Notes: generated by a model from the sequence alone, not told the origin. Counted from the first letter of the stretch, positions 17,192 to 18,323 are shown. The stretch is DNA of 23,647 nucleotides from a virus (IMGVR_UViG_2609460344_000008), one strand, 5' to 3'. Made by a program: numbers and translations.

Positions 17192-17332
17192 ATGAAAGTT
17201 AGAGACATCGCTCCATTAGGGATTCGTATCCCGCCAGAGATTAAAGAAAAATTGAAGGAAAAGGCTAAGGAGGAGGGCAGGTCTTTAAATTCAGAAATAG
17301 TGCAGCGTCTTATTCGCAGCCTAAAAAGTTGA
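17192..17332 (+). CDS. Arc-like ribbon-helix-helix repressor (46 aa); start at internal ATG with GAGGTGGA RBS
   Basis: [46 protein letters not shown] has the Arc-type RHH signature; track ORF from 17132 lacks an RBS. Confidence 0.72.
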
Positions 17333-17361
17333 AGCCCCAACTGCTGGAACAGTCGGGGCTT
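17326..17361 (-). terminator. Minus-strand intrinsic terminator-like hairpin (AAGCCCC.ACTG-CTGGAA-CAGT.GGGGCTT) followed on the minus strand by CAACTTTTT; candidate 3' end of a sar-like antisense RNA
   Basis: Seen in sequence between the arc-like and ant-like genes; a T-run follows only on the minus strand. Confidence 0.4.
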
Positions 17362-17393
17362 CGGTATCAACAAATCAGATAGGAATTATTGAT

Positions 17394-18323
17394 ATGGCAA
17401 GTTTAGCAAAGTCAACATTAAATTGCACTAACAGCATCACCATTTCAGACGTCAAGATTCATATGGATTCAGAGGGGCGTTACTCGCTTAATGACCTGCA
17501 CAAGGCATCAGGTAAAGAGCGTCGTCATGAGCCTGCTGCGTGGCTGCGACTCGAACAAACCAATGAGTTAGTTCAAGAAATTCTAAATACACAGATGTGT
17601 GTATTTAAAAATGGCGATAACTTTAATTCTTCAGAATCGCAGATTAAGAAGCCAATGGACTCTAAGAAGGGTCGCTACGGAGGCACCTACGTGTGCAAGG
17701 AGCTTGTTTACTCCTACGCCATGTGGATTAGCGCAGCCTTTGCGCTGAAGGTTATCCGTGCATATGACGCAATGGTTACTACCACACAAGAGAGGAAGGC
17801 TATTGGCGGTAAAACTTCAGTAGCTGAACGCACACCTCTACGCGATGCAGTAAACATGCTGGTAGGAAAGAAAGGACTTCGCTATGACGATGCATACAAT
17901 ATGGTTCATCAGCGTTTTGGTATTGACAGCATTGATGAACTTTCAATTGAACAAATCCCGCTGGCCGTAGAGTACATCCACAGGGTAGTGCTTGAAGGTG
18001 AGTTCATTGGCAAACAAGAGAAGAAAACCAACGAGCTTTCTGCAAAAGAAGCAAACAGCCTTGTATGGCTATGGGATTATGCCAACCGCTCACAGGCATT
18101 ATTCCGCGAACTGTATCCGGCGCTAAAGCAAATTCAATCGAACTATTCTGACAGGTGCTACAACTACGGCCATGAGTTCTCGTATGTTATTGGAATGGCG
18201 AGAGACGTTTTAATCAATCACACACGAGATGTTGATATTAATGAGCCAGATGGACCAACGAATCTTTCCGCATGGGTAAGGCTTAAGAGCAAAGAGTTGC
18301 CGCCTTCACTGCATCACTACTAA
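17394..18323 (+). CDS. KilA-N domain protein, putative antirepressor (Ant-like)
   Basis: N-terminus ...[47 protein letters not shown]...[35 protein letters not shown] resembles KilA-N; follows the arc-like gene as ant follows arc in P22 immI. Confidence 0.7.

Follow-up and report, generated by a model that had tools for sequence, protein, structure and literature searches.

Gene organization of the locus

The window (the whole stretch of DNA analysed here, 23,647 nt) represents an E. coli lambdoid prophage, and its positions 16250-18340 hold a cassette that is 100% identical to sequence in E. coli TOE17 and cM8a, with identities of 99.7-100% when TOE17, cM8a and LZHX12 are taken together. Tail gene L (15543-16241) flanks the cassette on the left and tail gene K (from ~18378) on the right. 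On the minus strand the cassette carries a ClpP-like gene (16298-16834; 178 aa; Pfam CLP_protease, E 2e-11) and an Mnt-like repressor gene of the Arc family (16834-17082; Pfam Arc, E 6.1e-8), the product of which is named 'Arc family DNA-binding protein' by PGAP in the identical TOE17 sequence. Divergent from the Mnt-like gene, on the plus strand, are the gene for an Arc-like ribbon-helix-helix repressor (17192-17332; 46 aa; Pfam Arc, E 5.2e-13) and ant, encoding the antirepressor (17394-18323; 309 aa). The Ant protein matches Pfam KilA-N (E 1.6e-22) and P22_AR_C (E 3.8e-29), and the C-terminal part of the gene shows 88.8% DNA identity to P22 ant. The arc, ant and mnt open reading frames are intact.

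Between the divergent Mnt-like and Arc-like genes, a repeat search found three operator-like 11-mers, ACAC(A/G)GTGTAG, at 17107-17178. One is contained in a perfect palindrome, CTACAC-A-GTGTAG (17108-17120), one lies over the -10 element of a Pant-like promoter and one near the +1. This putative promoter (17132-17159, plus strand; TTGACT-16-TAGTAT), identified by promoter scan and assigned its function by inference, is convergent with the Psar-like promoter described below. The repeats differ in sequence from the P22 operators and are probably the operators of the Arc-like and Mnt-like proteins.

As in P22-type immI, two divergent ribbon-helix-helix repressor genes are present and the rightward order is arc followed by ant, giving the same Mnt/Arc/Ant gene set as in P22. 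However, the insertion site is different: in P22-like podoviruses the module belongs to the late operon and lies before the tailspike gene, a position for which Casjens and colleagues coined the name 'ant moron' (PMC2629481), whereas in the window it is found in a lambda-like siphovirus prophage, between L and K. The cassette represents the immI-type module of P22 in another type of phage. It further differs from that of P22 in that the N-terminal domain of Ant is KilA-N rather than the P22 type, and in that the Mnt-like gene is followed by the ClpP-like gene.

The ClpP-like open reading frame abuts the Mnt-like gene directly downstream, at the place occupied by orf59a in P22; possible Ser/His/Asp residues can be picked out by eye, and the gene accompanies several different immI variants (for example in loci L011, L012, L080 and L084). 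A PADLOC scan of the four cassette proteins gave a single hit, in which Ant weakly matched a candidate family; the ClpP-like protein was unmatched. Terminator-like hairpins with T-runs flank the cassette at 16250-16267 (plus strand, after L) and 18341-18360 (plus strand, after ant), and such bracketing is typical of late-operon inserts that are regulated independently. The tail operon also carries a second insert, an OmpC-like porin gene (14208-15344, plus strand, 378 aa) located between tail genes M and L and labelled 'porin OmpC' by PGAP in the identical E. coli TOE17 prophage. In TOE17, tail genes I and J are separated by sodC (L003, 6686-7213) and the annotation gives J as truncated; no sodC is present in the window and its J open reading frame is intact (1157 aa), so the two prophages differ downstream of the cassette.

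A predicted sar homologue between arc and ant

The minus strand of the window at 17393-17323 very probably carries the gene for an RNA homologous to sar of bacteriophage P22. In an Rfam scan, minus-strand positions 17392-17327 matched all 68 positions of the sar family model (RF00262) and scored 67.6 bits (gathering score 43; E 2.8e-12), a large share of the score coming from the near-identical hairpin. This is the sole match at the gathering threshold in the whole 23,647-nt window, and the same scan gave no match to a c4-type family. Our own covariance model (R1) gives the predicted RNA 90.2 bits. When positions 17100-17480 were compared with phage records by BLAST, the hairpin region (17325-17365, 41 nt) was found to be 92.7% identical to P22 and 95.1% identical to epsilon34, and in both records the matched stretch is labelled 'sar: antisense RNA' and 'sar: terminator', with Psar also annotated in equivalent places.

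The predicted RNA, of 67-71 nt (17323-17393, minus strand), is defined by the Rfam match, the covariance model and the alignment of the window RNA with the annotated P22 sar. Its 5' end is placed at A17393 by homology with the P22 +1, and its 3' end would fall in the U-run at 17327-17323. Position 17393 directly precedes the ant ATG (17394-17396), and the end of the terminator stem (17331) is within the TGA of the Arc-like gene (17330-17332), which overlaps the 3' end of sar. The layout is the same in P22 (BK000583), in which sar is annotated at 15021-15090 on the minus strand, arc ends at 15022 (stop codon 15020-15022, sar 3' end at 15021) and ant starts at 15091; both RNAs are placed between arc and ant with the 5' end set against the ant ATG.

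The 3' part of the element, stem-loop II (17331-17362, minus strand), was recovered as an intrinsic terminator by terminator scan, with 14 pairs and a 4-nt loop, UCCA. Its sequence on the minus strand is GAAGCCCCGACUGU-UCCA-GCAGUUGGGGCUUC, followed by AAC and U5 (17327-17323). That AAC intervenes between the terminator stem and the U-run counts somewhat against the assignment, although P22 has this arrangement too, with a run of U3 rather than U5. Directly 3' of the hairpin the minus strand reads AACTTTTTAG, including the U-run at 17327-17323, while on the plus strand the sequence after the hairpin reads GGTATCAACAAATC and is without a T-run. The proposal in the initial annotation that the hairpin, with a T-run on the minus strand only, is a terminator for leftward transcription is therefore borne out. 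It had also been stated there that a hairpin not conserved in homologous cassettes would speak against an antisense RNA; the hairpin is conserved, stem-loop II being 99.8% paired across homologues with three pairs changed on both sides.

Fold and covariation of the predicted RNA

Minimum free energy folding of the 72-nt minus-strand RNA (17393-17322) predicts two stem-loops with an energy of -33 kcal/mol (z = -8.6), and none of 200 shuffled sequences was as good. In stem-loop I (17366-17393, minus strand), 17392-17387 pair with 17372-17367 and the anti-Shine-Dalgarno sequence UCCU (17384-17381) is located in the apical region. This two-stem-loop fold, with the anti-Shine-Dalgarno in loop I, is common to P22 sar; in contrast, the sequence of stem-loop I is almost wholly different. 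Stem I is UCAAUA/UGUUGA in the window and GUUGGU/ACUGAC in P22, so that all six Rfam pairs differ while pairing is kept through six compensatory changes, a comparison that is independent of the model-fitted alignment.

A covariance model was built from eight diverse copies, and the search covered 88 sources, of which 80 are IMG/VR loci retrieved via the Ant protein. In 87 of these the element lies immediately 5' of ant, the exception being a locus (L038) that starts inside ant, at residue 143. Pairs were counted in an alignment of 41 distinct homologues (A3) that is fitted to the model, which biases the counts towards the structure; in it, 98.8% of cells are standard pairs and eight pairs show double-sided changes, five of them in stem I (five of its six pairs). 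An alternative alignment made with MAFFT (A2) shifted P22 stem I one column out of register and was not used for the counts. None of 500 shuffles reached the observed pairing values, and only 32-47% of cells were paired once the 3' partners had been shifted by 1-3 columns.

The initial annotation had proposed a sar-like antisense RNA that ends at the hairpin and, like sar in P22 immI, is complementary to the ribosome binding site of ant. This reading is supported by the full-length RF00262 match, and also by homology to sar as annotated in P22 and epsilon34, by the position and covarying structure kept in 87 of the 88 ant-containing sources, and by the immI-type gene neighbourhood.

A conserved putative promoter in the first codons of ant

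Homology with P22 points to an extended -10 element at 17408-17400, together with a weak -35 element, as the conserved promoter of the window sar. This putative Psar-like promoter (17400-17428, minus strand) sits within ant codons 3-12 and comprises a -35 hexamer GTGCAA (17428-17423; 3/6 consensus matches), a 17-nt spacer and an extended -10, TG-C-TAAACT, in which the TG extension (17408-17407) and the TAAACT hexamer (17405-17400) are assigned from the promoter alignment; the predicted +1 is A17393. The extended -10, TGCTAAACT, aligns with TGCTATACT of P22. Annotated P22 Psar (BK000583 15097-15125) is GTGTTA-17-TATACT with a TG extension, and the window promoter matches it column for column, sharing the type of extended -10 and its distance to the start (TGC-TA[T/A]ACT-N6-+1), with TAAACT in place of the P22 TATACT.

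Aligned minus strands of the window, P22 and PhiR12_1 share an invariant TTGCTAnACT followed by N3-CAT. When distinct promoter regions were anchored on the ant ATG, a TAnnnT hexamer was present 3 nt upstream of CAT in 21/21 and a TG at -15/-14 in 17/21, and the TAAACT variant recurs in seven of them, one being from a Klebsiella phage. Relative to TATAAT, TAAACT has two mismatches and the P22 TATACT one, and a simple sigma-70 consensus scan of the window did not list the extended -10 promoter at 17408-17400. The strength of the Psar-like promoter is uncertain because of the two mismatches in the -10, the 3/6 match of the -35 and its absence from the scan.

The promoter apparently also leaves a trace in the protein encoded on the opposite strand. 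Ant starts M-x-S-[IL]-A in homologues (17394-17408 in the window; L001, L002, L004-L007, L032 and L033), with the exception of SPN3UB (L006), which has M-N-I-V-A. The codons under this motif, AGT, ATA or TTA, and GCA, are the reverse complement of the -10. Mutual similarity between Ant N-terminal domains of different types is undetectable, yet the position of the -10 is kept. A promoter on the opposite strand would be the simplest explanation for the shared first five Ant codons.

Distribution and mosaicism of the module

The order L-[ClpP-like, Mnt-like, Arc-like, sar, Ant]-K is common to E. coli TOE17, cM8a and LZHX12 and to the Escherichia phages PhiR12_1, PhiR12_4 and PhiR12_5, the PhiR12 phages having 94% identity over the 72% of the cassette that aligns. 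The sar of PhiR12_1 scores 69.4 bits by Rfam, and this phage differs from the window in having another Ant N-terminus and TATACT as the -10. The sar RNA is unannotated in the PhiR12_1, PhiR12_4 and PhiR12_5 records, in E. coli cM8a and LZHX12, and in RefSeq TOE17. The Salmonella phage SPN3UB carries a related module among its tail-region genes, with a sar match of 48 bits. Copies in epsilon34, CUS-3 and Emek are also matched by the Rfam sar model; sar is annotated only in the P22 and epsilon34 records, and the CUS-3 record (L005, 1081-1562), with a full sar at 84.6 bits by Rfam, says only 'bsq2 boundary sequence'. Most of the fetched homologues are without L and K flanks, and the P22-like ones have the tailspike gene downstream.

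When one genome per species was scanned for the exact pattern, the hairpin turned up in Pectobacterium, Tatumella, Entomohabitans and Lonsdalea, and the covariance model confirmed the full element in prophage-like loci of all four genera. A megablast search with a 110-nt query returned 65 genomes, all of them E. coli, although so short a query probably misses diverged copies. One stem-loop I type is joined to at least seven different 3' tails, and those tails are shared with other stem-loop I types; the hairpin-loop and 3'-tail variants reassort independently of the stem-loop I and ant types. Crossovers evidently occur inside the conserved sar hairpin, which on this pattern of variants would be a recombination joint.

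Alternative readings of the element

The conserved structure might instead work in the sense arc-ant mRNA, for example in processing, stability or translational coupling. The plus strand of the window does fold better than shuffled sequence (-23.3 kcal/mol, z -4.1, versus the -33 kcal/mol and z -8.6 of the minus strand), and structure in the ant mRNA target is known from P22, to judge by the title of a 1997 study by Schaefer and McClure. However, the minus strand folds more stably in 41/41 distinct homologues, by 10.5 kcal/mol on average, and four conserved G.U pairs of the minus strand would be A.C mismatches if read on the sense strand. Because of these two observations the selected structure is assigned to the antisense RNA and not to the sense mRNA, and the U-run and the conserved promoter are likewise on the minus strand only, which makes a function in the sense transcript extremely improbable. 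The initial annotation had drawn transcription from TTGACT (17415-17410) and TATCAAT (17394-17388); both strings are indeed present on the minus strand, and TTGACT matches five of six positions of the -35 consensus and is retained in the window-type and Emek-type cassettes, which share an Ant N-terminus, but as a sigma-70 promoter the pair is implausible. Counted to TATCAA the spacer measures 15 nt and to ATCAAT 16 nt, no register offers an A at position 2 of the -10 together with a T at position 6, and the consensus scan did not report the pair. TTGACT is missing from most homologous cassettes, with TGTGCC in PhiR12_1, CTAAAA in P22 and CTGCTG in CUS-3, and is absent from the SPN3UB and Klebsiella versions too, whereas the sar RNA is kept in all of these; its retention elsewhere is explained by the coding sequence for A-K-S-T. 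Nor can TTGACT act as the -35 of the conserved -10, since the two are 4 nt apart. Transcription from this pair would start at ~17381-17385, inside the Shine-Dalgarno complement, and with the same terminator would yield a shorter antisense RNA of ~55 nt that has no 5' arm of the covarying stem I and covers neither the start codon nor all of the ribosome binding site, and we regard such an RNA as very unlikely.

A silent relic is also very unlikely here, though it accounts for some features of the locus. On that reading the promoter has decayed and there is no functional sar, and the hairpin is kept as a boundary for arc/ant recombination or as a terminator of stray leftward transcription. The window -10 TAAACT is weaker than that of P22 and the -35 is poor, the free reassortment of loop and tail variants with stem-loop I and ant types has the hairpin acting as a crossover site, and the 'boundary sequence' label of the CUS-3 record fits the same picture. 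Against this, stem I, which has no role in termination, stays paired through compensatory changes; the -10 retains T-12, A-11, T-7 and the TG extension, its TAAACT form being found repeatedly among the distinct promoter regions; and the intact arc, ant and mnt open reading frames suggest that the module is functional. A homologue of P22 sar transcribed from the extended -10 promoter is thus the reading that we favour.

Proposed mechanism

The sar RNA of P22 (68/69 nt) binds the mRNA of ant by base pairing and hinders translation initiation (PMC12197685; PMC7968456; PMC13397905), is required for proper antirepressor control in the lysis-lysogeny decision (PMC12197685, PMC7968456) and is abundantly detected in infected cells (PMC13397905). 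We infer from P22 that the RNA would be produced in this prophage and would repress Ant translation. Leftward transcription would begin at about A17393, driven by the extended -10 promoter inside the first ant codons, and would end at the hairpin (17362-17331) and U5 to give an RNA of ~67-71 nt. Of its two stem-loops, I would display the anti-Shine-Dalgarno UCCU and II would be the terminator.

The target on the ant mRNA (17381-17396, plus strand) consists of the Shine-Dalgarno AGGA (17381-17384), a 9-nt spacer and the ATG (17394-17396). As sar and its target are both encoded in cis, the two are complementary, and the RNA would match the arc-ant intercistronic stretch of the rightward mRNA with full complementarity; by homology, pairing would run from position -1 to about -67, counted from the ant ATG. 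Complementarity to both the ribosome binding site and the start codon had been proposed at the outset; it holds for the Shine-Dalgarno and spacer but stops, with a 5' end at 17393, one base short of the ATG. Pairing would occlude the ant Shine-Dalgarno and so block translation of the antirepressor, with sar acting together with the Arc-like and Mnt-like repressors.

Two origins are conceivable for the rightward mRNA, the Pant-like promoter (17132-17159) and read-through of the late operon out of tail gene L. Convergent transcription from Pant is said to stimulate Psar, as Liao et al. reportedly described in 1987. For P22-like phages, late transcription reads through ant (PMC2629481). Since arc and ant in the window are co-oriented with the tail genes, antiterminated late transcription should read through ant here as well, and a post-transcriptional block would then be useful.

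Comparable arrangements are known from other antisense systems. The c4 RNA of phage P1/P7 immI is a small RNA that prevents antirepressor (ant) synthesis by pairing where ribosomes bind the ant operon mRNA; it differs from sar in being processed from the transcript of its own target and in acting in trans on short complementary boxes, and we know of no sequence or structural relation between the two. IS10 RNA-OUT and lambda OOP are cis-antisense RNAs that, like sar, are short and highly structured, convergent with their targets and ended by an intrinsic terminator, but they belong to other families and have other targets, lambda OOP acting on the 3' end of cII via RNase III cleavage and not on a ribosome binding site.

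Implications

A literature search found no description of sar in a lambda-like tail operon, and what is new here is limited to an unannotated instance of sar, with a divergent stem-loop I, in the lambda-like tail operon of an E. coli prophage. The RNA family has long been known and curated, and no new mechanistic question is opened by this instance. One may speculate, on a reading that we hold to be rather unlikely, that sar is a portable two-part 'lock', in which the nearly invariant hairpin would provide a crossover site for reassortment of arc and ant between P22-like and lambda-like phages, stem-loop I would define specificity classes that allow cross-regulation in polylysogens or deliberately lack it, and Ant would be kept silent upon Q-antiterminated read-through of the tail operon.

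The main value of the finding lies in annotation, as the RNA is missing from RefSeq and phage records even though a standard Rfam scan detects it. The locus is also a clear case in which proteins that are otherwise unrelated are constrained in their first five codons by a promoter on the opposite strand. Both lambda-like siphovirus prophages of E. coli and other Enterobacterales have received the control circuit of P22 immI as one unit, antisense RNA included.
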